A DNA stretch of 63,200 nt, filler included, from Neolecta irregularis DAH-3 (GCA_001929475.1; 13 parts of 13 records of this genome joined end to end with filler, not necessarily neighbours in it), one strand, 5' to 3'. Positions 3,899 through 61,170 are shown, counted from the whole stretch's first letter. The notes: generated by a model from the sequence alone, not told the origin. Program-made: numbers and translations.

Positions 3899-4886
3899 TT
3901 AAGAGGAAACTTTGAGTTTGTCTGGGTGGCGTTTTTGGGCGATTTCCCATTGTGAGTCATACCACAGGAAGTGGTACCACCAGTACGTAAAGGGGATAGT
4001 TGAGGCGTGCCAAAGGGAATGGGCATCAATAGCGTATCTCCATGGCGGGAAATCAAAGATTTCGAGCATGGTACTACAGGTCAAGCCCAAGACGATCATG
4101 GCAGGCCATAAAGCCCAGGACGGGGAGGTTCTTGCGTGCACGAGGGAGTAGAGCAGCCAGACAGTGTTTTGGAGGATGGCGACGGCGATGTTTGCCGTCA
4201 TGTTGTATTTGTAGTCAAAGATGACGAAGGAGAGGTAGCCTATGTGGAGCAGGTAGGCGAGGACACAAGACAGCGCCCAGATGCGGACGGAGCGCGGGCT
4301 GCGGTAGAGGCGGAACAGGCGCAGCGGGGCATAAAAGAGCGAGTAGAGCATGTAGGCGCCGGCGCTGAAGTAGTCCATGCGTTCGGTGAAGGGAAAGTCT
4401 CGCGAGTGGAAGACACAGCTCCAGACCCAGGCGTTGATGCCGAACAGGGCGAGGAGGAGGTAGAAGGGCCGGAGCGGGTAGCCGTGCGGGAGCGCGGAGA
4501 GCAGGCGCAGGCCGTGGTAGTGCACGAGGCCGTTTCCCAGCGAGAACAGGACGGAGAAGGGCTCCTGGATGCCCATGATGCGGTGGAAGGGCCATTTGCC
4601 GTGGAACTGCTCGAGCGGGGCGCCCCGGGCGACGAGCTGGCGGGAGACGGCGTGCTGGCACGAATAGTCGCACTCTGCGGGACACGACCAGAGCAGCAGG
4701 CGCAGATGCAGCGCCGGCGCCGCAGCATCGCCGCAGTGCTCGGCGATGCAGGCGCCGACGCAGTCTCTGCGCGGATCAGCACTGCGGGCAGCGGCGGCGA
4801 TGCCTGAACGCGGCGAGATTGTTGCCTGCCGAGCAGCGCACCAGCGGCACCAGCAGCGACAGGACTGCCAGCAGAGGGGCGCGCAT
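3899..4886 (-). CDS. per1: Per1/PGAP3 GPI-remodelling protein (2 exons; GC-AG intron 4767-4803)
   Basis: Spliced start MRAPLLAVLSLL...SAGNNLAAFR|DCVGAC, then W.C..EC.Y.C, QFHGKWPF.R..GIQEPFSVLFS, VFHSRD..FTERMDYFSA, FDFPPW..IDAHSLWH. Confidence 0.93.
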
Positions 4887-5245
4887 GGAGCGGGTGGATA
4901 GGGAGCGGTGGTGGTGAGGGTGGTGGTTAGGGAGCGGTGGAGCCTGGCCGCCTCAACCACCGATCCTCTCAGCCTGCCCTTACTTCTCAGCCACCCTCTC
5001 CGCCCGCAATTTCCGCCCCAGTGCCGTGTCTCAGTGCGCAACTGCCATTGTCCGGCGTTTCTTGCAACGCTGAAACATTATCAAACGACCTGCAAAAAAC
5101 CCGTTGGCGCCATACTGCGGGTCCCCTGCATCGGCTTTTCAGCTCGGCACTCCTGCTTCCCCCCCACGCCTGCCTGCTCCACCTCCCCCCACTGTCTTCG
5201 CACCCGTTTCTTCCACCGCCGATCCGCCTCCCGCTCAATGTCAGC

Positions 5246-8024: not shown

Positions 8025-8124
8025 NNNNNNNNNNNNNNNNNNNNNNNNNNNNNNNNNNNNNNNNNNNNTTAATTAATTAANNNNNNNNNNNNNNNNNNNN
8101 NNNNNNNNNNNNNNNNNNNNNNNN
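8025..8124. other. Artificial contig linker N44-TTAATTAATTAA-N44 (also at 11103, 12416, 21450, 25954, 28071, 31212, 32822, 36319, 47986, 57444, 60323)
   Basis: Identical 100-nt structure occurs 12 times; the core gives stops in all six frames. Confidence 0.98.
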
Positions 8125-9824: not shown

Positions 9825-11202
9825 CGGTGATTAGGAAAGTGGCAAGCAGTGTTAGCACACAGGCTCCAATCAGTGTTCACGGCGAGTTTTGACTGCTTTG
9901 ACAAGTGGTAGGTTCTTGGTGGAAATGGGGGTTTGAAGCTTGGTTGATTCGTTATTCAGACAGTATCCTCAACTATTAAAAAGAAACCTTCGCAGCCCTT
10001 TTATCCTATCCGCAGAACAAACGCTAGGCCAAGTGGCTCTGAAAAACAAAACTGATAAAGTAAGTAAATAAAAATAAAAGATAAGAAACTACTCTAAACT
10101 AGACCCAGTGAGACAACCGGCCGCATTCCCCTATACGAGGCCTATGGGGAGCCAGACCGATCTAATGACCTAGTTCTTCAAAGCTAAACGTAGAAACAGG
10201 TCGTTGGTTTTGGTTGACCGCGTGCTGAGACGTCTAAAGATACTGCGCAGGATAGTTGAGATAAATGATGTGACTATGGGATAGTGATAGGAGTTCTGAA
10301 GGAGCGGAAGGGGATTACTGTTGGGGTAGATAGTGGTAGTGGTAGAGGATAGAGGGTTGGAGATAAGATTTGTTGCTGTGACCGGACAATGAAAAAATGC
10401 GTGTTTCCATGTTACTCGCGACAAGTGTCATCTTGTAAGACGACTGCAGAATGGCCTCGTTTCACTAGTATTTTCGGCTCCCTTTTTTAGTCTATTAGAA
10501 GAGGATAACTCTAGTCACAAATGTCCAGAAATGTCGTTTTACCGCTTACAAATGTTGCTCAAACCATTACTTCGTTTCTTTTTCTATATCCATTCTGGGG
10601 CTAGCTGCACAGTAGACAAGGGGAAGAAACGAAATGCAGACAGCTATACTACAGAATTTCCCGATGAAGTGATTGTTTCAACGTTGATATATCCCTGGGG
10701 CCAACTGCAGATTCGCGGTTAAACGAAAGTTGTTGAGCTAGAAACCTTCTTGGCTGCGTTCGCCAGCCACACAAGAAAAATATCTCCATTTTCTAAAACA
10801 GGGAATATCGTACTTGTCGGTAGAAATTAACATTTTGAGAACTTTATTCTTTGTAAACGCCACAAACCGCGTTTGCCGCCACACTGAAATAAAATATTAC
10901 CTTTTTGGTCAACGCCACAAAGGCCTGACAAGGTTGCTTCTCGGTGGTACTATTGTAGTAGTGGTGGATAATAAACCTGAACTGTTCATGTAGGAGATGA
11001 GCAAATCTCTTCGGGATTCATATTAAAAGTAATTGCAGGAGCCTACTGACTGCACGCCCTCCACCCATTCAACCACCTATGCTTCCTCAACCTCACCTCC
11101 CTNNNNNNNNNNNNNNNNNNNNNNNNNNNNNNNNNNNNNNNNNNNNTTAATTAATTAANNNNNNNNNNNNNNNNNNNNNNNNNNNNNNNNNNNNNNNNNN
11201 NN

Positions 11203-11920: not shown

Positions 11921-12071
11921 GCAGCAGCAGGGTTGGGGGAGCATGTATGCTATGTAGGAAGATGATTTATATATCTAGATGCCATATATTGAATGCTAGC
12001 AAGGCGGGGATGGTTGGGTTACAGAGAGGTGTGACCAGCGGGAGGGGCAACCACGACTGAGCCGCCCATGT

Positions 12072-12355
12072 TCATTTCCCTGGATGATAGCGAGGAGCGA
12101 CGGAGGCCCAGATAACATCGGACTGCTGGCCGCGCGGGTGGCCGGTGAGCAGCTTATCGCGCAGCATCATTTGCTCGTCCCACGCGTCTGTGTTCCATCT
12201 GGGAGGCTGAGGGGGAAAGTCAGGGCGGGCGCGGGGGGCGGGCTCACCTTTCCGTCGTTCTCCCAGGTGCGGACCAGGGCTACGAGGCCGCCCGAGAGGC
12301 CAAACATGCCGATGATAATACCGACCGGGAGCAGCGCTTCAAAGGGGACGGGCAT
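12072..12355 (-). CDS. NDUFA1: NADH:ubiquinone oxidoreductase MWFE (NDUFA1) subunit; 3' end uncertain
   Basis: MPVPFEALLPVGIIIGMFG...NDGK|intron GTGAGC..CAG|PPRWNTDAWDEQMMLRDKLLTG.RGQ. Confidence 0.88.
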
Positions 12356-12395
12356 GGCTGCGGGAGGCGGGGGAGGGAGCGAGGAGAGGCCTGTC

Positions 12396-12401
12396 ACGTG
12401 A
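12396..12401. promoter_or_regulatory. E-box (CACGTG within palindrome GTCACGTGAC) upstream of the MWFE gene
   Basis: Perfect palindrome about 40 nt upstream of the ATG; function inferred. Confidence 0.35.
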
Positions 12402-12515
12402 CGGCGGGCCGGGGGNNNNNNNNNNNNNNNNNNNNNNNNNNNNNNNNNNNNNNNNNNNNTTAATTAATTAANNNNNNNNNNNNNNNNNNNNNNNNNNNNN
12501 NNNNNNNNNNNNNNN

Positions 12516-14555
12516 GCGACGCCGACGGCTGCCGCGGCTACACGCGCCTGTTCAGCGAGGCCGGCGAGGCCTGGGCCGTGCTGTGCGCCCGCCTGCCCGC
12601 CGACTTCCTCGGCCTCGTCGACGCCGTGCTGTTCTGCGCAGACGCCGCCCGCGACCTCGACGTCGTCAAGATCACCTTTCGCTTCTGGTACGAGCTCAAG
12701 CAGCTCGCCGTGCTGCCCGCCTTTGCCGCCGCCCGCGAGCTGTACGCGCCCGTCTACCGCCGCCTCGTCGTCATCATGGCCCGCCACATGGAGTACCCGC
12801 CTGCCGCCGCCGGGGCCGCCGCCGACGACCTGTTTGACGGCGACCGCGAGGCCGACGACGCCTTCCGCGGCTTCCGCCACGAGATCGGCGACGTGCTCAA
12901 GGACTGCGTCAACGTGCTCGGCGCCGGCCCGTGTCTCGCCCTCGTCACGCAAAAGCTGCAGGACCCCGGCTGGCAACAGGTCGAGAGCGCCCTCTTCGGC
13001 CTCCGCGCAATGGCCCGCGAGATCCCCACCGACGAGGACGAGTTCCTCCCCAGAGTCATGGACCTGCTGCCCCAGATCGACAAGCAGTTCGCCGGCATCG
13101 GCGCCCAAAAGGTCCGCTTCGCCGCCATCCTCGTCGTCGGCCGCTACACCGCCTGGGTCGCCAGGCGCGGCGGCGAGGCCGGCTGGATGCTCGACTTTAT
13201 CTCCAGGGGCTTTGACGACATCGCCGACAAGGACGTCGTCTCTGCCTCCGCCATGGCCCTGAAATACTTTTGCCAGGACTGCGGAACGGTACCATCCCCT
13301 GCATCCCCGTTGACGACAGCTGCTCCTCGACTTTCTCCCCCAGCTGCTCGCCTTTTACGAAAAAGTAGTCCCCCTGCTCGACAACGATCCGCTCTGCGAA
13401 GTGACAGAGGCCATCTCGCACGTCATCAACGCCCAGCCACACGGCTCCATCCACTCGTCCTTTGAAACTTTCATCGCCCCGACTTTGTCCCGCCTCGCCC
13501 GCCTCGAGTCCGACAGCGCCATCTGCGATACCGTCGACCAGATCACAATATTCGTCGCAAACATCAAACCCTACATTGAAAAAACAAAGACAAACCCGTG
13601 CATCCCCATCGTCTCCGAGATCTTAACCGTCCTGTTTCCCATCATCGACTCGCGCGGCTCCGTTCCAAACATCTCGGAGAAAATCTGCAAAGCCATAAAA
13701 AGCATGATGCCCAGCTATCGGAGCCACATGGCCCCGCTACTCCCTCAAATCGCAGAGAAACTGGTGTCCGGCTTCGAAAAGTACCAAATGGGCTGCTTTC
13801 TCTGGGTCGCCGGCAGTGTTGTCCGAGAGCTCGGTGAAGATCTCGGGAGCAGCATGACCTGGGCATTCGTTGAGAGACTCTGCTTTGGAATGTTTACCTT
13901 GCTGCACCAAGTCGATCCGGCTTCCATTCCCGACAGTACGCGTATCTTTATCACGCTGACATTAGTCATTGAAGATTTCTACAGATTGCTGCAGGACGCA
14001 ATATACATCGATCCAACAAGCATCCTCTCCTCCGCAATCTTCAAAACAATATTCGAAAGCTGCATTCAGCTGTCCACTCTCGACCATCCCTGGGCCTTGT
14101 CGGCAATGCTGAATTTCTTGCGAGACGTGCTTTCCTATGGTCTCGCCGACTCGCCCACAAGTCGCACATCAACAGGTCCCCCGCCTGCAGTACAACTAAT
14201 AGTCCGGCAAATAACAGCCGAATACGGCGTTCCCCTAACCCAAGCCATGTTTTCAGGAATGATTTATTCGTTTCCAAGAGACTGTGTCCCAGACGGGAGT
14301 TTTATCCTCCTTTCCCTCGTCGAAATTCACGCTTCGACTGCTCTAACATGGCTAAAACAAGTCGTAAATATGCTGCAAAACGGTCTCACAGACGACGAAC
14401 GAGAAAAGTTTCTCAGAGGAATAGAAGGGTACTTTTCCCCGCTTTCAATATTCACTCGCAGTGCGGAAAACGATGGGCCAAAGATTAGGAGATTGTTGCA
14501 GGATTTCACAGCTAGATATCGACGACGAAATGTCTTGCCTAGACAACGTATATAG
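12516..14555 (+). CDS. mtr10: Mtr10/transportin-SR importin-beta family (5' truncated); introns 13289-13319, 13936-13965, 14429-14461
   Basis: LFSEAGE, ITFRFWYEL, FRHEIGDVLKDC, WQ.VESALF.LRAM, GRYT.W, AL..FC.DC, GCFLW, PD.IEDFYRL motifs. Confidence 0.92.
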
Positions 14556-15664: not shown

Positions 15665-17357
15665 TCAGACATTTCGTTTCATTGGATGAGCTTCTAAATC
15701 GGTTAACTTAATTGAGAATTATACATGCCTGTATTAAATACCCAGTCATCCAGACTCCACCGTTCAGGTTCATCGAAACACAGATAAAGATACTTTAGAG
15801 TTTCCGCATACCAAAAGCTTTCTTGAGCAGTTTGCCGTTGTTGCCCAGTTATGACATCTTAATCAGACAAACCCATGCAGAATATATACCCGCAAGCTGA
15901 GCATGTCCGTATTCAGCTTTGGTCCATAGGCTCAAGGCGAGAAAGGCATCCCATGCCCATTCACGATACTTTACATTGCCCGTGATCCTCCATCCATAAA
16001 AGTAACTTTCAATAACTTCAGGACGAAGACCGTAAGAGCCATCGACGATCCAGAATCCCCATTTCGCAAGCTGTTCTTGTTGGTCTGCCGCAAGTACAGG
16101 GAGAGGCTCGTCAGCAGGAACAAATCGAAATACTTGATATTTAGCAAAGCAAGTAAAAGGAAAAATACATTCTGGGCCAAGACCAGTAGGCGTTGAAGCG
16201 TATGTATGGTGACATCCAGCTATCAATTCCTCGCCCCATTTCATAAAATCCTCTCGCAAAAGAGCCCTGGCTCCAAGCACTACATTTCCTCCTATAAAAC
16301 ATCCAAGATGCCCAAAAGTATATTCAAGGTTGTGATTCCCTTTCCACATTGCAAGAAAGGTATGGCCTTCCCTCGTCGTCACACTGAGGTTTCTCATTGC
16401 TGTTTCAATTGCTTCGACCCATCGGTCTCGGTACAATGCAGTTTCCGTCAAAGGTGCCATGATCCATGCTTTTATCAAATATTCATAATATGAATCTCCC
16501 TCGGCCCCAAAAGAAATCTCTCCATTCAGTTGGAGACCGGTTATTCTCTCCACCGGACCATTTATCAGAGCCTTTCCGAGTGGACCATCAACAGGTGGAT
16601 TTATTAGTATTTCCCACTCTTTCGACGCCTGCTTCTCAGAAAAATATATGGCAGGAAACACACTAGGTCATGGAACTCGGGGGAATTTGTCTGTTGGCTT
16701 AAACGGTAGAATTCCAACCAATTAGTACCTGCACGAGCGGCAGAAATGTATCCATTACCTTGATTAATTAGAAATTTCTGCATACACGCACCCATAGCTG
16801 CTCCCATCATTGGAGTCAAGGTTTCTTTTGCCAATTTGACGGCCTTGTCGAGGTAGATGCTACTGTGGGAAATATCATAAGCAGATACTAATCCGCCCAG
16901 GAATCGAATGATGGTTTCAAAGGGATCTACAGAACCAATCGCGTCCTTCCAGTCAATTGTCCGGATATATGAATCTGCCTCTTTGATTTCATCCTCAAGA
17001 TTCATTACATATAATGTTGAGAGCGCATCCACAATGGTCGCGGAAAAGTTATTTCTGAAATGTCAACAGTAGAACCTTGTAACAATGCCTCGAATTCGAT
17101 CCACGTCCGGTAATCGGGTTAATCTCATCCCAGCCCCATGCGTGCTCTTTATATGCCTTCCAATCATGAAGCAGCAAGTTCTTTACTTGTTCGGCTCGCC
17201 TCTTGTTTCCAGATGATCGTTGAAAGGAATGCTGGATCCTGCCATGCCGACGTCGTGAAAAACCAGGCAGATCCTTGAAACTGATGTAAATATTTATCAA
17301 GATGATAAAAGAGACGGCAAATATCATCAACAGTCTCAAAATAACCATGGGTCTCAT
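15665..17357 (-). CDS. Glycoside hydrolase family 47 alpha-1,2-mannosidase (type II membrane, multi-exon)
   Basis: AWGWDEINP, ATIVDALSTL, FETIIRFLGGL.SAYD, DSYYEYLIK, GLGPE, LRPEVIESYFY, ESFWYAETLKYLYL, VFNTEAHP. Confidence 0.93.
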
Positions 17358-21246: not shown

Positions 21247-21557
21247 ATATTTTAATAGGCTGTTCGTCTCATCTCTCTCTATCTGCTCCTAAAGTTTCAA
21301 ATCGATAGCTTGAAAATTAAAGCCAGCCCAATAGATTTTGTGCTTTTCGTCAATTTTGCTTCCATTAGAGCGATTTTGGTACCGTTCGGCCTATCTTGTC
21401 ATGCTCGTAGAGAAAAGTAGTAAGCATACTGATATTATCTCAACAACCANNNNNNNNNNNNNNNNNNNNNNNNNNNNNNNNNNNNNNNNNNNNTTAATTA
21501 ATTAANNNNNNNNNNNNNNNNNNNNNNNNNNNNNNNNNNNNNNNNNNNNGGCAGGTG

Positions 21558-22100
21558 GGCCAAGCGGGACGGGCGAGGCAGAAGGGAAGAGCGGGACGGG
21601 CGAGGCGGGAGGGACGCGCAGGACGAGTGAGGCAGGGGGGCCAAGCGGGACGTGAGGCGGGAGGGCCAAGCGGGATGGGCAAGGCAGGAGGGAAGAGCGG
21701 GACGGGCGAGGCGGAAGGGAAGAGTGGAACGGGCGAGGCAGGAGGGCCAAGCGGGACAGGCGAGGCAGGAGGGAAGAGCGGGTGGGTGAGGCAGAAGGGA
21801 AGAGCGGGACGGGCGAGGCGGGAGGGACGCGCGGGACGAGTGAAGCAGGAGGGAAGAGTGGGACGGGCGAGGCGGAAGGGACTCGCGGGATGGGTGAGGC
21901 GGGAGGGACGCGAGGGACTGGTGAGGCAGGAGGGAAGAGCAGGACGGGCGAGGCAGAAGGGAAGAGCGGGACGAGTGAGGCAGGAGGGCCAAGCGGGACG
22001 GGTGAGGCAGGAGGGAAGAGCGGGACGGGAGAGGTGGGAGGGATGAGCGGGACGAGTGAGGTGGGAGGGCCAAGCTGAACGGGAGAGGCAGGAGGGACGC
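21558..22100. repeat. GC-rich 27-bp minisatellite (about 20 units)
   Basis: Degenerate GCGGGACGGGCGAGGCAGGAGGGAAGA units; related units in reverse orientation at 60423-60620 and 60870-61120. Confidence 0.88.
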
Positions 22101-23789
22101 ATTAGGGTTTAGGGTTAATCGCCGACGACGACCGCAGGCACTTCAACTATAGCGGCAGCGCAGCAAGCCTGCAGATGAGTGCATACACCGGCTATCGCCC
22201 GCATGGTGCTGCCAACGAGTATTGACTAAATGTTGATGAATGTTGATTATGTCAACTGAATGTTGGATAGCCTGTAGTTGTCTCAGTCATAAATGAGATC
22301 CTGCTTGTATAGATGTGAGTTTCATTCGATACGGCGTTGCTTGACCTGGGTGGCTGCCACTCACCGTGGTGGCTGTTGCAGCATTTACCTGGCTGAACCG
22401 CAGCTGCCTGCCGTCGCCGCACGACCATGGAACGGGGCAGCTTCAATATCTTCTCACCACAAAAATCTTCATCTTGCGGTGGATCAACCGCACCAGATTG
22501 GCGGCCACGGTGCGCAGCTTGCCTTCCAGCGTGAGGGCGACCGCGGCAGGTGGGCTGAGCAGCAGGTGCCAGGATGGCCAGTGGAACCCGGCAGTGATGG
22601 CAAACGCAGACTTGCCGAGCTCGGTGGAGAAGTCTGTGTCGAGGCCTGGAGGTGGGTTGGCGATGGTCGCGGGATTTACTTTGTCGAGCAGCTGTGTCAA
22701 TGCAAAACAATGCAAGTTCCCTATCTGTGATCGTAGATACGACAACGGCGGATCTACAGCGCGATTGGAGGCCACGATGCCAAGCTCGCCTTCCAGCTCC
22801 GTGGCGACATACGGTCTGAGCGGCCAGTGCGAGTCCGGCCAGCGGAACAGGGCGGCGATGGAGGACTAAGGCTTGCCGGGCTTGGCGTCGGAGTCTGTGG
22901 TGAGGCCCAGTGGCGGGATGGAGTGAGAGGGAGCACAGGCGGGCACCAGAAATACCGGGTCCATACACAATGCTGAGTATCTGCGCCGCGTAGTCAGGTA
23001 GTTATAACTTGTCTTAACAAGTAACAAGGAGTTTTCTGTTAAACTGACTAACCATTTGTACTCGCTTCCTAGGTGTTAGACTTTCATCTTTGCTAAGGTA
23101 ACTACCTGAGAAAATCAGCTCCTCACCTTATGTGATGAAGGCCAAGGAATCTAGCTCGGTGGAGACGCAAATATGTTTGACGGTGCTCAGACTCGGGGAG
23201 GGGCAGTGTGAGTGGAAGAAGAGATCGTACAGCGCTGGTGGGTACAGGTCATCCATGAGTTTGGTGTCAAGCAGGGGCGACTGCTCTGGCCGGCCTCGAA
23301 GACTTTGCGCAGATAGCACGCCATCCATAACAGCCATAAAGAATCTAGCAGGGCAAATACAGCTTTGATGGATGGTGGTTGATTGACTGCTGCCGATGGT
23401 TGAGTGACAAAGGGCAACAGCTGACTAACTGCAGGTACTGTTGGCTGCCACACGCACCGGCACAGCGCTAACCACCAGGAAAGGTAGGTGCGATGAGGTG
23501 GAAGAAGGGAGCACAGGTCTGGGGATCTGGGAGGGCTCAACTCTGCGGCGGTGGAATAGGCAAGGGAGTGCTGGGACACTGAGGACGTTGCAGGCCGTGG
23601 CGGATGTGATCCAGGTGTGGGAACATGCAGCCTGAACGCGACATAGGTCAGGCGGCGGATTAGCGAGAGCTTGGGTGGAGCGTCAGGGAGGGCGAGCGAA
23701 GGAAGGCATGGGTGAAGCGTCAGGGGCAGGGCTGCCAAGGACGAGGAGTCTGTAAGGGGGAAAAAGCACTGCTGTTGGTACAGGGCATC

Positions 23790-28170: not shown

Positions 28171-28375
28171 TTTAATACTGTTATATTAATATACTTTTAC
28201 AAAATATATAGTCTCCCATACCCCATTACAACTAAATTATTATCACAAAAAAGCCATGACAAATGATTCGAATCTGATTTGTAACGAAAATTTCCAGATT
28301 TATGAAACTGAATCCAAATCCAGATTCGAATCAATGAATCTGTATCAAATCTGATACGGATTCTATACAGCACTG
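28171..28375 (-). mobile_element. hAT-like terminus inserted into gypsy RNase H
   Basis: Minus strand CAGTGCTGTATAGAATCCG... begins where pol similarity ends; it carries repeated GAATC/GATTC motifs and palindromes. Confidence 0.5.
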
Positions 28376-31211
28376 ATTGTCCTCCCCCACTTGCGACAAT
28401 ACTGCCCCAATTCCTATTGATAAGGCATCGCAGGTTAAAACTGAAGGTTTCCTCGGGTCATGTCTCGCAAGTAACGGTGGAGAAATTAGTGCCTGTTTAA
28501 GCTTCTGGAAGGCCACTTTCTGCAGCTCTTCCCACTTCCATGTTTGCTCTTTTCAAGTTAATTCCGAAAAGGGTGCTGAGATCATCGCGAAATCTGGAAT
28601 GAAGCATTGATAAAACCCGACCATGCCCAGAAACCTTTAACTTCGCGAATAGTTTTTTCTCACGAAGTCTCTGTAATATTAACCTTATATCCTTAGTATG
28701 CTGAGTTTGTGATTCTGAAAAAATCAGCGCATCGTCCATAAATACATTGCAACAGCGGTCCAACCCTACTAGTGCCCTATTCATCATTTGCATAAATGTA
28801 GCTGGTGCATTAGCCAAGCCAAATGGTAAGACTTTGAATTCAAAGTGTCCCATCTTTGTTTTGAATGCTGATAGTGGCACTGTGTCAGGGTGTAACCATT
28901 GCTGAAAGTATCCGGATGCCAGGTCAAGTTTTGAAAACCATCCCGCATTACCAATACTATTTAGCAGCTCAACGATCCTTGGTAGTGCCGTGTTGTTCTT
29001 CAGTGTGTTACTGTTTATGTCTCGATAATCAATACACATTCATAATTCACCCGATTTTTTCTTTATGAACAAACATACAGCCCCATAGGGTGATGTGCTG
29101 TGTTGAATAAACCCTTATTTTAACAGTCCTTCTATTTCTTCCCTCATCGCTGCCTCTTCGGCTATTGATAATTGAGGGATTGGTCTGTTCCGAGGTAACC
29201 TTGCAGGATCCAGTAATGCGATATGGTGGTCTTCTTCCCTCTTAGGAGGAAAGGGAAATTTCTCATTGAAGACGTCTTCGTATTCCATCAGTAAGGACTT
29301 CATTCCACTTGATAGTTGCTCTTGATTTTCTAGTGGCTGGGTTTTCTCTGCCACTGCCAGGAAAAGTTCATCCCTTTCCGATATCTCTGCCAAACTGCAG
29401 GTCATAACCTGATTACACGCGGAGTGGGTAATCAGGTCATGTCCTGCGATTTTGCATGCATTTCTGCGATAATCGATTATGGGTTGGAACCTTTCATGTC
29501 ATTTTTTCCCTAGGAGCATATCGCTTGCCCCTAGCTCGGCAACTTCAAATGAATCCATGAATGATAATTGTCCTTGTTCTGATGGAATCGAGACTATGAC
29601 ATAAACTAACGCCTGGGGTTGAGGTTTGACTTGCTCCTCTCTTTTGTCAGCCATTACTACCTTGACTGATTTCCCCGTTAGCTTAGTTTCGAGTCCATGT
29701 TCTTCAACGAACTTTTTCGCTATGAAATTATGTGTTGCACCGTCATCCTTTAGTGCAATGACTTCCACCTGCATTCTTTTTTGACTGATAGTACAGGGGA
29801 ATTTTATTAATCCTTTGCCGGATAATGCCACATTAACAATTTCGAGCAATGGAGAAGATTTTTGAGACATAATAGATATATTTCTATTGCTATCAGATTC
29901 ATTTATTGAGGGGGGATAGCTTCTCCGTCCATGCCCTCCTCCTCTTTTCCTGACTATACATTATTTGCTCATCGGTTTTTTACCCATTTGGGTTTTTTCT
30001 TCTTGTTCTCCGGGTGGTAAAACCAGGATTTCTTGATGTGTCCGTTACTCAACTTACACCAATTACAAAATCCTTTATTTTTAACTGCGTCAATTTCCAT
30101 TGGTGTATATCCCCCACTGGCCCCGTTTGAACTTTTCATCATCGATTTTTTCAACTCGAATTCTCGCGCAATTGTTATTGCCTCTGCAATTGTCACAGGG
30201 CTCTTGTCGATTAACTTTTCTTGACAACCAGGCATTGTCGAGAATGCGCGTATGAATCCATGTACTAAAACCGATTCGGGGTAGCTGACGCGAAGTTTAA
30301 GTCTTTGGAATGCCATTATGAAGCCAGTTATTGAACCCTTGACTTTTAATTCATCGAATGCTTGTTGTTGCTTAAAGAGGTATCCCTTCTGGATAAACTC
30401 GTCTCGAAAGATTTCGATAATTCTTTCCAAAGATCTGGCTGCCTCTAGGCTTGGCTTGTTAGCTCACCACCATTCCTTTGCATATCCCTTGAGAGATTCG
30501 AAGATCAAGCACTTAAATTCAGATATCTGGAACTCGTGTCCTTGCGAAACTTCAATCACGGAAAACCACCAATCATTGACGTCTTCTTTCCCAGAGAATC
30601 TGGGTAATTTTGGTACTTGTGCAGCACATTGTACAGCCAGCGTGGTAGATTTTGATGCCTCCGTAACCGCCGCAGCCACTGTTGAGGCAAATCGTTGTTC
30701 CAAGGCTGCTGCATTCGCAGCCTGGTACTCCTGTCTTCTGGTGATCGCTTGGTCAATGGCCGAAGCAACACTTGTGCTAATGGTAGCAGAAACCTGCTCC
30801 ATGATTCTCGCGAACATTTCAGGATCCATTTTCTTTGGGTCTTATTTAGGGAGTACTTTTATAGCGTGACCGACATGGTAGGACCTCCAAATGTAAGATA
30901 CTAGCTGCATCTGCCCGGTATCTTACACATCAGTACTCTTGTAATAAGACCTATATTTACCTTGCACGTCAGTATTCTTGTAATAAGACAAGGGTACTGG
31001 CGGCGCAAGTCTATCTACTTATAATATATTAATGCCACTAATTAGTGGCTACAGAATATACTGGAAGGGTCCGGAACCTTCCGGGGCCTTCTGCCACTAT
31101 ACCGCATTCGGTGTTCATTCTGACCACCGAAATGCGCTCCTTACACCTATCATCAAGTTCAATAGGGAATGGACTATCCCCCATCAAGGACCTACCCCCT
31201 CAGAGACCTAC
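28376..31211 (-). mobile_element. Decayed Ty3/gypsy LTR retrotransposon (partial 5' LTR, PBS, gag, protease, RT, start of RNase H)
   Basis: Gag with PMEID and degenerate zinc knuckle CNWCKLSNGH; protease ALKDDGATHNFI; RT MCIDYR, KLDLASGY, LPFGLANAPATF, FMDD; RNase H TCDA.SIGIGAVLSQ; several nonsense codons and a deletion. Confidence 0.95.
30877..30889 (-). promoter_or_regulatory. Primer-binding site complementary to tRNA-Gln 3' end
   Basis: TGGAGGTCCTACC lies 2 nt after the LTR end ...TATCTTACA; its complement GGTAGGACCT-CCA resembles eukaryotic tRNA-Gln 3' ends. Confidence 0.7.
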
Positions 31212-32057: not shown

Positions 32058-32821
32058 ATGATATACTCAAAATACTTTCTGGCTCTAATCTCTTGGGTAA
32101 TTCTCAGCATTGTCATACTCATTACGACAAAAAAGCTCTTTGAAACACCCAAAGTCCTCTCGACATTCACAAGCAACAGAACGCTCGGCTTTGGCGAAAT
32201 TTACGTGATTTCACTGCCTCATAGAACCGACCGCCAGGATGCAATGTTTCTGATGTCTCTCAACACTGGCTTCGATATTAAATTTATTGACGGGGTGGAT
32301 GGGGATGCTGTTGCTGACAAGGCCATACCTGGGAACACCAAAGAGGGTCTTAGCCCTTTACCTGGAGTCGTGGGGTGTTGGAGAAGTCATATGAATACAT
32401 TAAAAACGTTTCTGCAATCCGGAAAAGAGGAATGACTCCTTGAATGAAATGTATGCTGACTGGTAGACTGCATTAATTATGGAAGATGATATCAATTGGT
32501 CTTTTCGTTTAAAAGAATCTCTTTCAGCGATTGCCGTCAATATTAACCATCTTGAATCGCAACGGCTAGGCGATCAATATGTCTTTGACAGGAAAAATCC
32601 TTATACATTGACTTGGGATATCATTTATCTGGGTTCATGTCTTGAAAGCGTTCCAAAGAAGGATGTTGCCGCGACATTTTATGACGATACGGTTCCCTCG
32701 AGGGAAAATACCACCGAGCACTATCTTGCAATACTGAATCATTTTCGTGCTCCTCAAAAGCATCGCATAGTAATTGAAGCTCAAGCTCCCGTATGTACAT
32801 ACGGGTACTCTGTGACCCGTC
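32058..32821 (+). CDS. Glycosyltransferase family 25 (type II membrane; 3' truncated; intron 32430-32466)
   Basis: NRTLGFGEIYVISLPHRTDR.D, FIDGVDG, GCWRSHMN, |TALIMEDD..W, WDIIYLG.C, PVCTYGY.VT. Confidence 0.9.
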
Positions 32822-33668
32822 NNNNNNNNNNNNNNNNNNNNNNNNNNNNNNNNNNNNNNNNNNNNTTAATTAATTAANNNNNNNNNNNNNNNNNNNNNNN
32901 NNNNNNNNNNNNNNNNNNNNNTGCTAACATAAAATGATTTCTATCTGGCCATTTCTTTCATTGGTGAAGTATGCTGCACATACAAAGGTCATGTCGTATC
33001 ATCCTGATCTTGTGTCACGTGATCCGTGACAAATCTTGCGAGTGTAACTTTGAGCAAATGGCAATCCATTCACAATTGAACAACCAACCAACGTATTCAA
33101 ACGAAACAAACACTATCGGGATCAGAATTTAAAGGCAAAACTAATGGTCTGTCAACGAATTCAATACAAGAAAGTCAAAAGGGGACCTTTGAAGAAGCAT
33201 CACATGGAGGAAACTACCAAACTGCCATAAAACCTAGCAGCCTGCCAGAGCATTCTCCAGGCGGGTGGTTGGATCTCTTGGTGAAGGCGGGAGGCATAAA
33301 AATCCGGCCTGAGAGGTCCCACCCGCCAGTTCGTAAGCAAGTAAGCAAGCAAATTCAACTTGAAAGTTTTACTTATTAGCAAGTCTGATGACTACTAAGA
33401 AGTACTTCTGTCAAACAGCATTCTATTTCTAGGGTTTGCAGTAGACAATGAATTATTTCAATGAGTCGCATTTGAAATGCGTGAAAGATCCACTACACTC
33501 ATTCCACCCATATCTACAGAACTGATTCAATCGTTACATCAGAGTTGGGAGAGATCAGAGAATCAAGGATCATCTCCACAGAGATGAGCTTTATAAGGAG
33601 ATGCACAAATGCCCTGAGGTCCCCCCAAAGCGCCTATTGTATTCTCTGAAAATCTTTCAAACTTGTTA

Positions 33669-38278: not shown

Positions 38279-38288
38279 NNNNNNNNNN

Positions 38289-43776: not shown

Positions 43777-45994
43777 CTACAACTTCTCCAATTCCCAGTA
43801 ACGATTGTCAATGCTCTCTTGCAATGATCTCCAACCCCAGATGGCTTGGCTAGCTTTCGGAGTCAAACCTTCTTCCGTTTTCTCTCCCAATCCTTCTGAT
43901 ACAAAAGAAGTCCCCTTCCCTGATAACGGGTCTTGTTCAGAGACTTCTATGTTATCCATTGACGTGTCGTTTATAACTTCGGCTTTCGACATTGCTCGAG
44001 AGACATTTCGACTCTCGTAAATCCTTAAAACATCCTCCTCAATCAGCTCAGACGTATCAGCCCATGGCACATTAGCTTCATTACGGAGACCAGGGGAGGG
44101 CGGTCTGCAGGGGGTACTATCTAGGCTACCCGGACTAGGAGATGAGCTGAGAGAGCTGAGGTCAACGATTTCATCAGCCCCCTCATTGTGGAAAGCCTTT
44201 TCGTTGATAACGGACATCTGAGGGCGGTCGTCCTCGTCCTCGTCCAAAAACCCTCCAAGAACCTTCCATTCCTGCTCCTCTTCCTCGAGTTCTTCGGCTG
44301 TTGGCTTTGGTCCTGTGTACCAGATCCTTGCGCCATAACCGGGAAAGAACCAGTAAAATAAACCTAATACAGCAACGAAAATGATAACTATCGATGAATA
44401 ATTCATTTGTGACCAGTTCGGATGGGGTCTCTCGGGGAATAATAGTATAATGACTGTAGAAGCCATAAAAAGGAGTGAAATCGTGTGACAAGATTTGGAA
44501 AGGACACCAAGATGAAATGGTCCCCGGTTGAACAAATTAGGGTTTCGCAGTCGTGCGTATATAGGCAACGAATAGGCAGCGAAAGATCCTGCAATAGCGA
44601 GCTGGCATTGAATGAGCAGCGAAATTATAAGTACAACATACCGAGAACAATGCCTCACTTGCTCGTGTACCGCAGAGACAGATCAAGCCCAACAGACTTG
44701 ACAAGAATATGATGGTCCAGGAAGCTAGAATCGGAGTCTGCCTCTTTGTGTTCAACCGAGAAAGATATTTAGAGAATGGAAGTCCACCGTCTTTTGAAAA
44801 AATCCACATCTGTTTAGAAGCAACAATCAACTGAAATGTTAGTTGTCTTCAACTCATCAATAATACGATCGAAATTCCAACCATCCATTGCAATACACAA
44901 GTTGCACATAGGAACACAAGAGCACCATTTCTCCCGAGAATATCAAAGAGCATCTGAGAGAATGGTGTGATTGGGCTGGCAAGGAGACTAGTAAAAGTTG
45001 AAGGAACACAGAATGCGATCACGGTCATTAAAAGAAATCCGAGAAGGGAAGCGGATATAGTGGAGATAGCAATGCTCCACGGAACGGTGACTGAAGCGTT
45101 TTTCGCTTCTCCGGCCATGTTGACAGATGAATCAAATGACCCTCTATAGCCGTTAGCATATAACCCAAGACGATGGCATACATGACCCATACAGGAGCAA
45201 GGAATGATATCATGAATGATAATCCTTTGCTGTATCCAGTGAGATGGGAGAAATGTGTGAATACGTGTTTTGCTGTGTGGAGTTTGGGAGAGCAAAGAGG
45301 TAAAGAGATGCAAAATGCACCGATTAACAGCAGATTCGCGGTGATGAAAACGTATTGCAAACGAGCCAAAGGTCTTCTACTGACAGAGCAGATAACTCCA
45401 GTAAGAAGCTGTAGTCCAATGAAGACAAGATAGGTGAATAATAGGGGTGGTTTCCATTCGGTGACAAATGTGAGCAACGAGGAGAATGAAAGACTCGCCG
45501 ACCCTAACGAAAATCAGCTATGAATAGAATGGTATATGGATTACAATTCACGCAGGCTAAACCGGTAATTTGTGCAAGAGAAGTGGACCAACCAACGATG
45601 AAAGATAACGCTCGAGCAGTATGGAGATCTGATAACCGATATGTCCAAAAGTAGAACCCTGCTCTAGAAGCATGAGAAATGGGGCCTGCAGGCAAGCATA
45701 CGACAACGGCATGCTACTAGCCAGCTCTGCTATAGATAGCCCAACGACGTTGATAAATATACTTGCAACCAACCATCCTATTGTTAATCCAGCTGGCCCA
45801 GCAGGTAATGACTGAGACATATTAACCCTTGATTCTCTTAATGAACAACTTACATAGGTCAAGACGGCAGAAATACTTGGAACAAGGCCAATCACGCTGA
45901 AGGCTAAGCCAAATATCTCGATGAAGGTGAAAGTTCTTCGCGAATCTTGTCTGTAGCCAAGGGCCGCAAGAACCGCTTCATCTGGATCCGACAT
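43777..45994 (-). CDS. APC-superfamily amino acid/GABA/choline permease with long acidic C-tail
   Basis: LAALGYRQ..RR.F, FGLAFS.IG, GPAG, AELASSMP.SAG.Y.W, FDSSVNMAGEAKNA, FSKDGGLPFS, GPFHLG, NYS. Confidence 0.9.
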
Positions 45995-50645: not shown

Positions 50646-51057
50646 GTTTTATTTAGCGTTCAAGATATCCTACTGGAATCGCCGGATCACCTTATTTCCC
50701 GACTGATTTGTATTTTCGATGGAGAAGGATGAGGTTCGATGGTATACAACAAATGGCGAACCCCACAACCTGCTGGCTGCTTGCGTACATCGTGATTTAA
50801 TCTCGATTATACAACATTGCAACATGCTCAAAAAGAAGGATCAAGGGATAATCAAATCAGAGTACCTATACATTCCTCAAAGGCTCACTTATTTGCAAGT
50901 CATAGAATAATAGTTTAAATTTCTGCACAAAATTACCAAGTAGTATAATGCCATATGCTACTCATCAATGATAAAGTGACTACATACAAAAGCTAAATAC
51001 TCTCCTACTTCTACATCAACGGGGAGGTATCAATCACATATATCTTTTTAGTTATTC

Positions 51058-53029
51058 TTACAATTCTTCTTTAACTCGATCTCCAACTTTCTCAGCCTGT
51101 TCTTGAGCTACATGTTCAGCGGCATGTGTTTTTTCTTTGATATAGTCTGCAACCTTTTCAGCTTCGCCGTAAGCAGCCCCACTGGCACCTCGAAGAGTTC
51201 CCTTGATTCGCTCGACGATTTGGTAAAGGCAATCTTGGGCTTTGGAAAGAATATCGTATCCAAAGGATTCCTTGGCCCATTGCGGGGCTTGGTTCCGGGT
51301 TTCTTGGATCTTGGCGAGCATAGCCTCTCGAGTTGAACCTTGGGGAAGAGAAATTCCATGTTGGTCAAGGTACGATCTAACTGTATCAGTAAAGATCACA
51401 TTGGGGACAATACTTCAAGTCGGAATCGCTCCAGTGATCGTACGCCGCGTGGGTGACTCTAGCAGCAGTGTTTGATAACGTTTTGAAAGCCTCTCCACCC
51501 ATAGAACTGGCACTGTTATAATTCTCCGTAGCCACATTGATGAGTTCGTCACGAGATCCAGATTTTGGAATAGTAATGCCATGTTCCTCAAGCCAAGAAG
51601 AAAGTTGTTCGCTATTCCATTCGTGGAAGAAAGATTGATTGACGATCTTGTTGTTGGCTTTGTGCTTGTGCTTTCGAACGGAGGCGAGAAGTTCATCGTG
51701 CTTGTCATTTTGAGGAATCAGAATACCGTGAGCATCGAGATAAGCTTTCAACTGACTATCACTCCAACTAAGAATTAACATAGATCTAGAGGTTTAGTAA
51801 CATACGCAGATACAATTTTGTCAAATTCTTCGCTAGCCTTGTCTGCGGCAGCATTCGAAGCTTTGGAAACTTTGGAGGCAGCAGCTCCATAGGTGTTTGC
51901 AGCTGCATCATTGACCTGTTCGAAGATAGAGTAGGCGGATTCTGGGAAAGTATCACCAGTCAGGTATGCCTTGTTACGTCGGACAAGGGCGAGAAGTTCA
52001 TTTCGTTTGGATCCTTGTGGTACCGGGATGCCATTTTTGTCTGCCCATTCCTTGAGTTGCGAATCGGACCAACTGCAAAGTTAGCACAAACAAAGGAAAA
52101 AACATACGTATCGAAGATCTTTTCATTGACGGTATCTGCCGCATTACCAGCCATAGTATAAACATTATCGGCAGCATTTCCAGCCATAGTATAAACATTA
52201 TCGGCAGCATTTCCAGCCATAGCATAAACAACATCTGCAGCATCGCCGGCATGGTCTTTTCCCGCTTGAAAAACCTTTTGAGTACCATCTGTGATATGGT
52301 CCGAGAGAATGGCTCCTTGTCTGCGCGCTTCAAGGCTTGCCCTTCGGATATTTCGTCGGACCAAGGCAATCATTTCATTTCGGTTGGACCCTTGAGGAAG
52401 TGGAAGTTCATGGGCATCCAGCCAAGCCTGCAGATCAGAATCAGACCAGCTATATTATTGGAAAAAAACGGAGGTTAAAGAGGCGTACGATTGATATAGC
52501 CAATGCCCTGGGGTTCCTGCGAAATTTTTGGCAGTTTCAGCAACGGATGCATATGCGTCGGAGGCGGCGGCTAAAAGAGCGTCTCGAGTGTGGATATCGG
52601 GCAAAGGGATGTGATTATAGTCGAGCCATGCTTTGAGTCCACTGTCTGTCCAACTAGATATGAGCAATCTAGAGAAAGTGGGGCAAATTCCTATCGAAAA
52701 TCCAGTCTTTGACAGAAGATGCTGAATTTTGGGCAGAGTGTTCCATTTTTGAGGTGACGGTATCCCAATGTTTTCCGACCACGTCGATGAGATCTTTAAG
52801 ATCTGCGGTTTCTGGGTAGGGGATATGATGATCTGATAGCCACTAGGGGTTAAAAGCATTGGGAGGGTAGAATACTTTTTCGAGTTCGGGTTCGTTCCAC
52901 TTGTTGTAGACTAAGCGTTGGAAGCAATCAATTTGGGATGGGGTTACTTTTGTTTGTGCCAACCTTCCCCGAGGAAGCGTTTACAGAAAGCAGACATGAA
53001 GCAAGCAGGAACAAGAGTTTGGCCTGCAT
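51058..53029 (-). CDS. msc1: Ish1/Msc1-family nuclear envelope/ER lumen protein
   Basis: Signal peptide MQAKLLFLLASCLLSVNA, YNKWNEPELEKWLSDHHIPYP, repeated W(S/T)DS.LK.(W/Y)LD.H.I..P units, 11-aa tandem repeats, C-terminal KEEL. Confidence 0.9.
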
Positions 53030-53162
53030 AGTGGTGGAATGGAGAGGAAGGTGGAGTAGGCGACGATATGTAGGCGCGAGCGTAGTCACCAGCCACAATT
53101 ATCGCCGTTACGTCATGATGACAACGAGAAAAGGCAGTAATATACAATAAACAAATAAAGGA

Positions 53163-53784
53163 TCAGGCATTTCCCCAGTGGCGCGGCGGGGGGATGTAGG
53201 GATTGTCGCCAAAGCTTGGAGGGAAGGCCAGCCACAGGAGGATGTTGCAGGCCACGCAGGAGAACACGGCGACCAATGCTATTCTGAGGCAGAGCGGGCG
53301 GGTCACGGGGAGGTCTGGGTTGGTGTTGTGCGCGGCAAGGCGGGATTCGAGGGACTCTATGCCCTGGCGGGCCTGGCGGATCTCGTCGTGAAGCTGGTGG
53401 AGGGAGTGGAGCAGTCTGGAGGCGGGCGCCGCGTCTGGACTGTCTGGCGCGGCAAAGGGGTCGTTGGGGGGCGAGTCTGGCGCTTTGCAGGGCGAGGGCG
53501 GTGCGGCTAGGCGGTTTGTAACGGCGCAGATAGAGAGGTACCGAGAGGCGTGGCCGTCCAGGTGCCGGGCGGGCGGATTCTGCAGGGCGGCGACGCGGAG
53601 ATGGCTCTGGAGAGGATGCGCAGGTCTTTCTGCGGGGTAGACTGCGGGATGCGTCTGCGGGAGGGTTGGAGGAGAGAATGGGTGGGGGAGGATGTAGATG
53701 GAGGGGAGGGAGAGGGATGGGAGGGGGAGGGATAACGACGGGAAGGAGGAGGAGGGGGAGGGGGAGGAGGAGGAAGAGGAAGAG

Positions 53785-53825
<41 letters not shown>

Positions 53826-53839
53826 GGAAAAGAGTCCAT
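53163..53839 (-). CDS. Proline-rich coiled-coil protein with C-terminal TM
   Basis: The MDSFPPPP... frame joins the 282-aa frame through a phase-1 GTACCT...CTAG intron (about 53507-53541), giving a coiled coil (LHDEIRQARQGIESLESRL) and a TM. Confidence 0.55.
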
Positions 53840-54209
53840 CTGCTAGGTGTGGGTTGCAGGAGGCGCTGAGCCAGGGCAGCACCCGCAACAGCGACAGCAG
53901 TGCGGACGGAGGACGGGAGCCGCACATCGCATACAGGCTGCTGCAGCGGCATACAGACACAGTCCCGCGGCCGCTGCCGCTGCCCAGAGGGAGACGCTCC
54001 ACGCAGGACACCCCGGCCGCCTACCGCCATCCGCTAGGTACGCCAAATGAAACATCGCCACAATCAAAACAACTCCACCAGCCACAGGCACACCCGTACA
54101 TACAGGACTGCGCCGCATAGCAAGCACCCAACGCCCGCCTTCCGCATCCGATCACTCCCACCAACCACCATCCTCTCGCTCTCTCTCTCTCTCTCTTCCT
54201 CAGTATACA

Positions 54210-56663: not shown

Positions 56664-57543
56664 TTGGGCCCGAGAAGAATGTCTCGGTCTGGATTCTCCA
56701 TTTTATAGCTGCATCTTTGGCGTTGAAATTATTGGTGTGAAATCAGGAGAATGTAAAAAAGTCGTGCTACTTCGACCCTTGTTTTATCGTATCCTCGTAG
56801 GAAAGGAATGATGACGCTATAATGAAGGGCATGACCCCGTGAACTTGTCTAGATTGATCTCCGGTGAATCGCGTCCTTTTCCTTTCCAACACACTAGTAA
56901 GATATACTGATCAACAACCACACCCAGATTTTACTCGCACTTCCAATTGTCTGGAATATTTCTGAAATATTTTTTTCCGTCAGTCACTCTGATTACTTGA
57001 TATCTCGACGGGGGAGAATGTAAACTAAATTTGGGGTTTGTTTAGTACGATCAAATGACCATTTTTTAACGGCGGCTTAAGCCTTAAGTATTGTAACATC
57101 CTCATGTGGTTTTGAATGGCCTCAAGGTCAGTTATTTACTCGAATATCCCTTGTTATTCCTCCCATTCGCTTTGTTTCAGAAAAACGATAGTACGGCCAG
57201 TAAATGGGACTCCTACTATCTATGAATGACTGAAAAAGTATACAGGGTTCCTGTCGGCAATAGCTTGGACTAGCACATGAAGAATATAGATAAGCGAAAT
57301 ATAACGACCGGAAGAATCCGATTGTTCCTTAGACACACCCCCCTGTATTTCTAAAGAGACCATATTGCAATCAAGATACGGATTCAAAATTCATCGATTA
57401 GAAAGAATGACGATGGCGTTTAGATGGCTCATAAAATGAAAATNNNNNNNNNNNNNNNNNNNNNNNNNNNNNNNNNNNNNNNNNNNNTTAATTAATTAAN
57501 NNNNNNNNNNNNNNNNNNNNNNNNNNNNNNNNNNNNNNNNNNN

Positions 57544-59350
<1,807 letters not shown>

Positions 59351-60113: not shown

Positions 60114-60422
60114 AAAGGTGAGGTTGCGGGTCTAGCGTGGACCACGGTCCGGGTAGCGTTCTTATTCCCCTTTTACACCAAAAATGTCATGGCGGTGTTA
60201 CATCTGTTGCAGACCCCTTTTCACGTTAAATAAGCGCCATTCATCNNNNNNNNNNTCCCCTTTCCACGCTTACCCCTGCTTGCTCCTCGACGACCTCGCA
60301 AACGTAAAAATTGCAGACTTTGNNNNNNNNNNNNNNNNNNNNNNNNNNNNNNNNNNNNNNNNNNNNTTAATTAATTAANNNNNNNNNNNNNNNNNNNNNN
60401 NNNNNNNNNNNNNNNNNNNNNN

Positions 60423-61170
60423 CCCGCCCGCCTGTCTCGCTCTCCGACCCGTCCATGCCTCCTCTCCTGTCCCTCCTGCCTGTCCCATCCCGCCCACCTG
60501 CCTCGTGAGCCTTGCCTACCCATCTCTCTTGCCTCGCCAATCTTTCCTGCCCGGCTCACCCATCTTTCCCGTCTCGCATAATAGTTTGGCCTGTTTGGCC
60601 TGCCCACCTTGCCTGCCTGCTTGTCAGCTCCTTGCTGATATTTAAATAAATATAAAGAATTATTTACATAATATAGTAATTTAAGCTTGCCTTTTAATAT
60701 ATTCCTGCTCTGCCCTGAACGCCACCACCCGAAATGGTTGTCACATGTTCGGCCCGGCCCGGGCCGCACCCTCAGAAAAGCCCATGGGCTTCGGCCCATC
60801 CCCAACACTGGGGCCCCGGCGGGAGAGGCGAGAAGGCGGGCACCTAAGTCCTGTCCCGCCAACCCATCACGCGCGTCCCTCGCCCGTCTCGCCCGTCCCG
60901 TCCTGCCTCGCCTATCTCGCGCGTCCCTCCCTCCTCGCGCATCCCACCCGTGCCTCATCTCCCTTCCCTCACGCCCGTCCCGCCCGTCCCGCCCGTCCTG
61001 CCCGCCCTGCTTGTCCCACCTGCTCCGTCTGCCCGCCTCGCTCCCCTTGTCTGTCTCTCTCACCCGCCTGACTTGCTGGCCTTTCCCGCCACTCATGCCC
61101 TGCGCCCATCTCTCCTGTCCATGAAAAAGCCCATGGGCTGGGCTTGACCCTCAAAAAAGCCAATGGGCAA
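60423..61170 (-). mobile_element. hAT-like end (CAGTGTTG from 60810) embedded in GC-rich repeats
   Basis: Homologous to 20922-21031; AAAAGCC(C/A)ATGGGC repeated at about 60776, 61125 and 61155. Confidence 0.6.

Follow-up and report, generated by a model that had tools for sequence, protein, structure and literature searches.

Intron 3 of an Ish1/Msc1-family gene of Neolecta irregularis DAH-3 (52654-52690, minus strand), which lies in the 63,200 nucleotides (nt) of DNA that were analysed here and are referred to as the window, is in all likelihood a genuine GA-AG intron that is precisely removed to give a functional Ish1/Msc1-family messenger RNA (mRNA); we put the probability of this at about 0.88. 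On the basis of the join, the sequence context and the 3′-end, the segment is very probably an ordinary U2-type spliceosomal intron with a GA 5′-end. The U at position +2 of an intron is among the most conserved bases of eukaryotic gene expression, and almost all gene finders and splice-aware aligners presuppose that an intron begins with GT or GC. The support for intron 3 is unusually good: the join is seen in transcript-like contigs, the homology is exact to the residue, sister introns of the same gene serve as positional controls and the genomic base was recovered in a separate assembly.

The segment reads GAATTTGCCCCACTTTCTCTAGATTGCTCATATCTAG on the minus strand, with TTCGATAG on its 5′ side and TTGGACAG on its 3′ side, and stands in the context TAG|GAATTT...ATATCTAG|TTG. 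The surrounding minus strand codons are ..TCT GTC AAA GAC TGG ATT TTC GAT AG|GAATTTGCCCCACTTTCTCTAGATTGCTCATATCTAG|T TGG ACA GAC AGT GGA.., with 52690 and 52689 being G and A respectively on the minus strand. The coordinates given in an earlier analysis made without database searches (the sequence-only reading) were correct, and its GA-AG reading is supported. When unspliced, the upstream frame halts at a TAG within the segment (..SVKDWIFDRNLPHFL-stop or ..KDWIFDRNLPHFL-stop); the Ish1 repeat that follows (SWTDSGLKAWLDYNHIPLP) is read in a different frame from the upstream exon. When every donor between 52661 and 52745 was paired with every acceptor down to 52621, for introns of at least 21 nt, 135 pairs kept the frame and ended in AG. 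None of these started with GT, three started with GC and eight with GA; a canonical intron is therefore unable to repair the Ish1/Msc1-family gene. The only GT within 60 nt around the GA donor was at 52713 and was out of frame.

At 37 nt and 41% GC, intron 3 is within the range of the neighbouring introns. The A of its CTCAT motif lies 7 nt from the intron end, and inspection by eye showed YNRAY-like motifs at a similar spacing of 7-9 nt in the other listed introns, the motif being a degenerate one. Two other intron types were rejected. Introns of the U12 type, which are removed by the minor spliceosome, have the 5′ consensus [AG]TATCCTT and a TCCTTAAC-like branch site, whereas the donor here is GAATTTGC and no TCCTTAAC-like branch motif is present in the 37 nt. 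A structure-defined non-conventional intron of the euglenid type was rejected because no stable junction-pairing structure was seen; no unusual RNA fold of intron 3 and its flanks was found (minimum free energy of -14.9 kcal/mol compared to a shuffle mean of -14.69, z = -0.07).

Contigs of two public runs from one study, here called X1 (98% of sampled words) and X2 (78%, 11 Mb of contigs), were aligned to 50800-53300 of the window. Both runs are labelled 'DNA?', which is a guess, and they differ in their coded organism label; X1 is possibly the source of the assembly. The X1 contigs were colinear with the window and showed no differences across 50800-53300. The X2 contigs skipped seven of the seven introns of the Ish1/Msc1-family gene and had no other differing letters over the exons. 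On the plus strand six of the skipped segments are CT..AC, which is GT..AG on the gene strand, and one (52654-52690) is CT..TC, which is GA..AG. As all seven introns of the gene are missing from X2, we infer that this run is complementary DNA (cDNA) and treated it as such.

In a 1671 nt X2 contig (record 6, depth 360) position 52653 is followed directly by 52691, a skip of 37 nt with a shared flank of 3, and this contig also carries the GT-AG joins 52449/52489 and 52842/52876. The junction TTCGATAG/TTGGACAG, which had been predicted by the sequence-only reading, was thus recovered in intron-less contigs, with a skip of 37 nt and not 31 nt. A skip of 31 nt would correspond to a GC-AG intron (TT|GCCCCA...CTAG, 52654-52684) with the product ..IFDRNFWTDS, which would keep the frame and would belong to the commonest class of non-canonical donors. 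GCCCCA is a poor donor, however, and RNF does not occur between FD and W in any of the aligned homologs; the 37 nt skip of X2 together with homologs lacking FDRNFW practically excludes this 31 nt intron. The X2 depth in the bin 52648-52731 was 201.5, which equals 360.1 x 47/84, and X2 contigs are therefore absent from intron 3. At the contig level the spliced form alone is present in X2, although contigs drop rare variants and cannot gauge efficiency.

The gap in X2 could also have been produced by a template switch of the reverse transcriptase at the TAG repeat, or could represent a deletion allele. A short direct repeat of 3 bases does flank the gap, and Frey and Pucker (PMC7072748) consider that junctions which look non-canonical can stem from template switching. 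An AG-ending exon before an AG-ending intron shares at least 2 bases in any case, however, and the gap restores both the frame and the exact conserved peptide, agrees in phase and repeat position with three bona fide introns, has the intron length and 3′ layout of its neighbours and is the only form in the depth 360 contig. A template switch or a deletion is accordingly very improbable. The same repeat bears on the register of the cut. TAG ends both exon 3 and intron 3, and this 3-base overlap allows four cuts with identical mRNA (GA-AG, GG-TA, AG-CT and TA-TC), which the mRNA cannot distinguish. GA-AG was chosen as the preferred register as it is the only one with G at +1 plus a 3′ AG, like the other six introns of the gene and a second GA intron described below, and it also fits the phase of the three sister introns; we regard a cut in any of the remaining registers, which would mean that the intron is not GA-AG, as very unlikely.

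The gene model was built from the X2 joins, with the ATG at 53029 and the stop ending at 51058, and the features are listed in Table 1. The 571 amino acid product has a hydrophobic N-terminus, and its full-length homologs, which are annotated as Msc1, Ish1 or stress response protein, share 31-46% identity with it and come from the Leotiomycetes, Eurotiomycetes and Sordariomycetes.

Table 1. Coordinates of the Ish1/Msc1-family gene, of the parts of its intron 3 and of the other non-canonical introns in the window, counted from the first letter of the window.
Feature	Position	Strand	Description	Basis
Ish1/Msc1-family coding region	51058..53029	-	8 exons, 7 introns of 33-39 nt, 571 amino acids	X2 joins, Pfam, homologs
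Intron 1	52911-52947	-	37 nt, GT-AG	
Intron 2	52843-52875	-	33 nt, GT-AG	
Exon 3	52691..52842	-	WLSDHH...SVKDWIFD, then two bases of the Ser codon	X2 joins, translation
Exonic AG at -2/-1	52691..52692	-	immediately 5′ of the GA donor	sequence
Intron 3	52654..52690	-	37 nt, GA-AG, phase 2; removal gives conserved FDS|W	skip in X2 contig record 6 and sequence
GA donor dinucleotide	52689..52690	-	52690 = G at +1, 52689 = A at +2	sequence and X1 DNA contig record 4
In-frame TAG stop within intron 3	52669..52671	-	ends the upstream frame when unspliced	translation
Putative branch-site-like CTCAT	52660..52664	-	A 7 nt from the 3′-end	sequence
Acceptor AG	52654..52655	-	part of CTAG	sequence and X2 join
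Exon 4	52489..52653	-	final base of the Ser codon, then W of the Ish1 repeat	X2 joins; PF10281 E = 3.7e-8, profile positions 4-36
Intron 4 (control)	52450-52488	-	39 nt, GT-AG (TC|GTACGC), phase 2, before W (YQS|W)	
Intron 5 (control)	52073-52107	-	35 nt, GT-AG (AC|GTATGT), phase 2, before W (FDT|W)	
Intron 6 (control)	51768-51805	-	38 nt, GT-AG (GC|GTATGT), phase 2, before W (VSA|W)	
Intron 7	51377-51413	-	37 nt, GT-AG	
Predicted second GA-AG intron, GT25 glycosyltransferase gene	32430-32466	+	37 nt, phase 0	residue-exact homology, no read support
GC-AG intron, GH47 alpha-1,2-mannosidase gene	17055-17088	-	34 nt (GAG|GCATTG...GTTGACATTTCAG)	conserved NSRN
Apparent GT-TG intron, Snf1/AMPK-like kinase gene	58004-58037	+	34 nt (GTATCA...GCTTACCCCTG, ending CCCCTG)	alignment to PDB Ssp2 and Snf1 chains

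The repeats of the gene supply internal controls for the position of intron 3. Exons 4 to 7 each scored 34-81.5 bits against the Pfam Ish1 profile PF10281 (cutoff 26.6), and a W at profile position 4 stands at the start of each of these exons. Introns 3, 4, 5 and 6 are all in phase 2 and all lie immediately 5′ of the Trp of a repeat, which places the GA intron, as judged from the profile alignment, at the homologous position of its Ish1 repeat. The sequence-only reading had named introns 4 to 6 as GT controls in phase 2 before the Trp and had placed the GA donor at the homologous position. The controls are real, as all three are skipped by X2, and the shared start of exons 4 to 7 at PF10281 position 4 bears out the placement.

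The spliced product was aligned with 32 of 48 homologs, of which 28 cover the site and four are N-terminally short. The joined product (KDWIFDS|WTDSGLK) aligned with the homologs without gaps, and 27 of the 28 homologs showed a gapless WI[FL]D[STH]W over the junction, with SVKDWIFDSWTDSQLK (WIFDSW) in most. The joined peptide KDWIFDSWTDSGLK that had been proposed from the sequence is thus the form conserved in homologs. In P0012, from Emydomyces, an 18 amino acid insert (YVLFRALGEDELKLIKRR) is located precisely between FDS and W. This insert begins with S-Y-V and ends with R-W, as expected from in-frame read-through of a phase 2 TC|GTATGT...AG|N intron, and the resemblance is a hint that the intron position may be old and GT-bearing elsewhere.

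The main doubt that is left concerns the +2 base, as the RNA source could have a T at this position. The sequence-only reading had called for a check of genomic base 52689, and an X1 DNA contig (record 4, 52193-53300) that spans intron 3 has an A at this position, with a word depth of 340 and no differences from the window. This separately built contig rules out a consensus error at 52689 but gives no second sample. Were the true donor a GT, the A at 52689 would be a sequencing or assembly error, or a polymorphism absent from the X2 strain. That X1 may be the assembly's own data, that the X2 contigs are absent from the intron and that the organism labels of the two runs differ would all allow for this. 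Against it, the separate assembly of X1 by Logan has the same base in a variant-free listing, the exons and untranslated region of X2 are identical to the window over ~2.3 kb, such that a lone difference at +2 would be a coincidence, and a second GA donor occurs in the same context 20 kb away. A GT donor is therefore improbable, and we know of no RNA editing that makes GU from GA.

Several points nevertheless weigh against a GA-AG intron at 52654-52690. The cDNA nature of X2, a run labelled 'DNA?' and with another organism label than X1, was deduced from its skipping of introns; its contigs do not cover intron 3, so the +2 base of the RNA source itself is unseen; and, if X1 represents the assembly's own reads, the base check would not be independent. 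The cut position is formally ambiguous owing to the 3-base overlap, contigs cannot reveal splicing efficiency, a lariat or spliceosome dependence, and the CTCAT branch-like motif deviates from the CTRAY form. Finally, the argument for U1 compensation that is set out below uses a general consensus for U1 and the 5′ splice site rather than small nuclear RNAs of the host.

A second GA-AG intron appears to be required by homology in a GT25 glycosyltransferase gene, which has a weak match to PF01755. Its context is AAAGAG|GAATGACTCC...TGCTGACTGGTAG|ACT (GAG|GAATGA...GCTGACTGGTAG), and both neighbouring exons are closed by stops within the intron. No GC alternative was available at this site, and the sole GT option was poor and 100 nt long. 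The joined product ..GCWRSHMNTLKTFLQSGKE|TALIMEDDINW aligned without gaps with 10 of 10 homologs, and in a tblastn alignment of the Lipomyces homolog P0049 residues 42-172 ended at 32429 and residues 173-296 started at 32467.

The GC-AG intron of the GH47 gene was chosen over a 43 nt GA-AG alternative, as only the 34 nt choice retains the conserved NSRN. The homolog P0073 has an insert at this site that starts with R-Y-V, as would arise from read-through of a GTATGT intron there, and the two remaining introns of the GH47 gene are GT-AG. The apparent GT-TG intron of the Snf1-like kinase gene lies between HRDLKPE(N) and LLLDD. Residues 105-138 of Schizosaccharomyces pombe Ssp2 (3h4j_B) aligned up to 58004 and residues 139-220 started at 58039, which would be consistent either with a real TG acceptor or with an assembly that is missing a base. 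The six other introns modelled in this gene are GT-AG and 31-36 nt long; the last two, placed with reference to Snf1 sequences, are tentative.

Eleven introns were fixed by cDNA or by residue-exact homology (seven in the Ish1/Msc1-family gene, one in the GT25 gene and three in the GH47 gene), and their donors were compared. The three non-GT donors among them (TAG|GAATTT, GAG|GAATGA and GAG|GCATTG) all had an exonic AG before the donor and an A at +3, whereas an exonic AG was present before none of the eight verified GT donors (3/3 vs 0/8, Fisher p = 0.006). Compared to the donor consensus AG|GTAAGT, the GA donor of intron 3 matched at 5/8 positions and the non-GT donors at 4-5/8. Seven of the eight verified GT donors likewise matched at 4-5/8, with one at 6/8. 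The AG at -2/-1, the G at +1 and the A at +3 would keep the U1 complementarity of intron 3 at 5/8.

All 18 introns that were mapped in the window (15858-17088, 32430-32466, 51377-52947 and 57570-58705) measured 31-39 nt, which for an ascomycete is unusually short and varies unusually little, and had a branch-like motif ~6-9 nt from the 3′-end. Four of the 18 were non-canonical, where three of the four genes had been picked because of such an intron; the 15 bystander introns contained no GA donor and one GT-TG. An ab initio census of introns based on open reading frames (ORFs) was run in several versions, in which codon-usage scores, a branch motif and limits on length were either applied or left off. 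It was powerless, as its last version gave 65 hits for GT-AG when the average dinucleotide pair gave 63, and therefore no GA-AG frequency was drawn from it. Two GA donors in 63 kb is far above the expectation from published rates, whatever the intron count.

Six further GA candidates in the window, which the ORF-based census had raised, were rejected. Three of these proved to be other introns: 44831-44877 is a 51 nt GT-AG intron (ATG|GTTGGA), 58669-58705 is a GT-AG intron at 58673-58705, and 17055-17097 is the 34 nt GC-AG intron of the GH47 gene. The candidate at 45504-45549 joins a non-coding frame and that at 14419-14461 lies in a non-coding overlapping frame. The last, at 29464-29508, fits AG|GAA...CAG but marks an ORF boundary of a retroelement, where a frameshift site is more likely.

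A spliceosome that tolerates A at +2 would do so because the remainder of the donor site compensates. Pairing of U1 at -2, -1, +1 and +3 would substitute for the lost +2 pair, the tight geometry (37 nt, with a branch-like motif 7 nt from the YAG) would help to fix the site, and recognition of the whole intron, at lengths of ~31-39 nt, probably aids the fixing of the 5′ cut. A variant U1 in the host is a possible alternative to compensation with the standard U1, and for Eurytemora a U1 altered at the base opposite +2 is discussed by Frey and Pucker; a search of the 63,200 nt window with Rfam at gathering thresholds gave zero matches. As the intron position appears to be common to distant ascomycetes, the GA donor would descend from an ancestral GT whose T at +2 was replaced by A.

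GC-AG introns likewise depart from U at +2 with a strong remaining site, and the one at 17055-17088 shares the exonic AG and the A at +3 with the GA introns. C at +2 is an accepted minor variant in all eukaryotes and is allowed by gene finders, whereas A at +2 is disallowed by most of them. In the copepod Eurytemora affinis and in the tunicate Oikopleura dioica, GA introns have the AG|GA donor, the A at +3 and a normal AG acceptor, as do both introns here. For Eurytemora affinis the exonic AG is described as obligate and the +3 A as almost universal (Robertson, PMC5714493), and for Oikopleura a conserved upstream AG and downstream A are described (Frey and Pucker, PMC7072748); both GA introns found here read AG|GAA. 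Those two species are animals, in which GA accounts for ~3% of the splice sites that have support, and GA together with GG for ~12% of introns in curated genes, whereas here two GA cases are documented in 63 kb of an ascomycete fungus with 31-39 nt introns.

Human FGFR1-3 reportedly have a natural GA 5′ splice site that is used efficiently, as Brackenridge et al. are said to have described in 2003, and the GA donor here is likewise a natural GA 5′ splice site. Human GA donors, including those of FGFR, are mostly sites of alternative splicing according to Robertson (PMC5714493), who also quotes Parada et al. 2014 for a count of 14 GA donors in 222,263 human introns. Unlike at human FGFR-type sites, the only nearby GT here (52713) is out of frame. 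Within fungi, GT-AG averages 98.7% across annotated genomes (PMC7072748). GA-AG is among the rare non-GT/GC pairs of Fusarium graminearum (0.31% in total), seven such genes having been confirmed by Sanger sequencing, although the part of that paper which was accessible gives a mere listing, with neither a context rule nor recurrence (PMC3577648). GA-AG introns are thus already documented and rare, including in the Fusarium graminearum listing, and intron 3 adds one more. A fungal lineage with recurrent GA donors was not found in the literature searched, where GA-AG in fungi came up only in PMC7072748 and its preprint, in PMC3577648 and in passing mentions; the per-species supplementary counts of PMC7072748 may include pertinent figures.

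The recurrence of GA donors and their common AG|GAA context is an interesting lead. By analogy, an AG|GA-A rule common to the copepod, the tunicate and this fungus suggests that there may be a general route of compensation by U1 and the spliceosome, which this fungal lineage may use repeatedly. A wider reading, which we offer tentatively and would not hold to be probable, is that in this deep-branching ascomycete with ultra-short introns the spliceosome is relaxed on terminal dinucleotides, and that AG|GAA GA-AG introns form a regular minor class at the percent level (~0.01% elsewhere), beside GC-AG and perhaps GT-TG. If true, this would give the copepod and tunicate cases a counterpart among the fungi and provide a microbial system in which to study how the requirement for U at +2 is bypassed; if a transcriptome-wide count confirmed it, the system would be a compact one for 5′ splice site recognition in very short introns. 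GA introns also make intact, expressed genes seem frameshifted or truncated, and the same would apply to the GT25 gene at 32430-32466.

Exon 5 of the Ish1/Msc1-family gene contains three tandem 11-residue units (AMAGNAADNVYT-like, 33 nt) at 52144-52227 (minus strand), and the contigs of both runs break in this repeat (52176/52193). X2 contig record 6 extends ~700 nt upstream of the start codon into a GC-rich ORF at 53163-54020. The transcripts of the Ish1 gene and of the upstream ORF (52948 to beyond 53300, minus strand) therefore abut or overlap, and a contig with two genes is no proof of a single transcript.

The best protein matches were 40-53% identical and came from the Leotiomycetes, Orbiliomycetes, Pezizomycetes, Geoglossomycetes and Lipomyces, a spread that fits an ascomycete with no closely related annotated species. 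A Ty3/gypsy-like retroelement with ORFs in differing frames is located at ~28200-30900 on the minus strand. Against a background of ~42% GC, the window contains islands of 60-72% GC (for example 1-560, 3900-5500, 12000-13500, 21550-22150, 53150-54150 and 60400-61150), whose open frames, present on both strands, are proline-rich, repeat-like or of low complexity. Paired blocks of 44 N with 12 bases between them are present at 12 places (for example 8025-8124, 11103-11202, 32822-32921 and 57444-57543) and two runs of 10 N at 38279-38288 and 60246-60255, with a total of 1076 N; the blocks interrupt several genes, the GT25 and Snf1-like ones among them.
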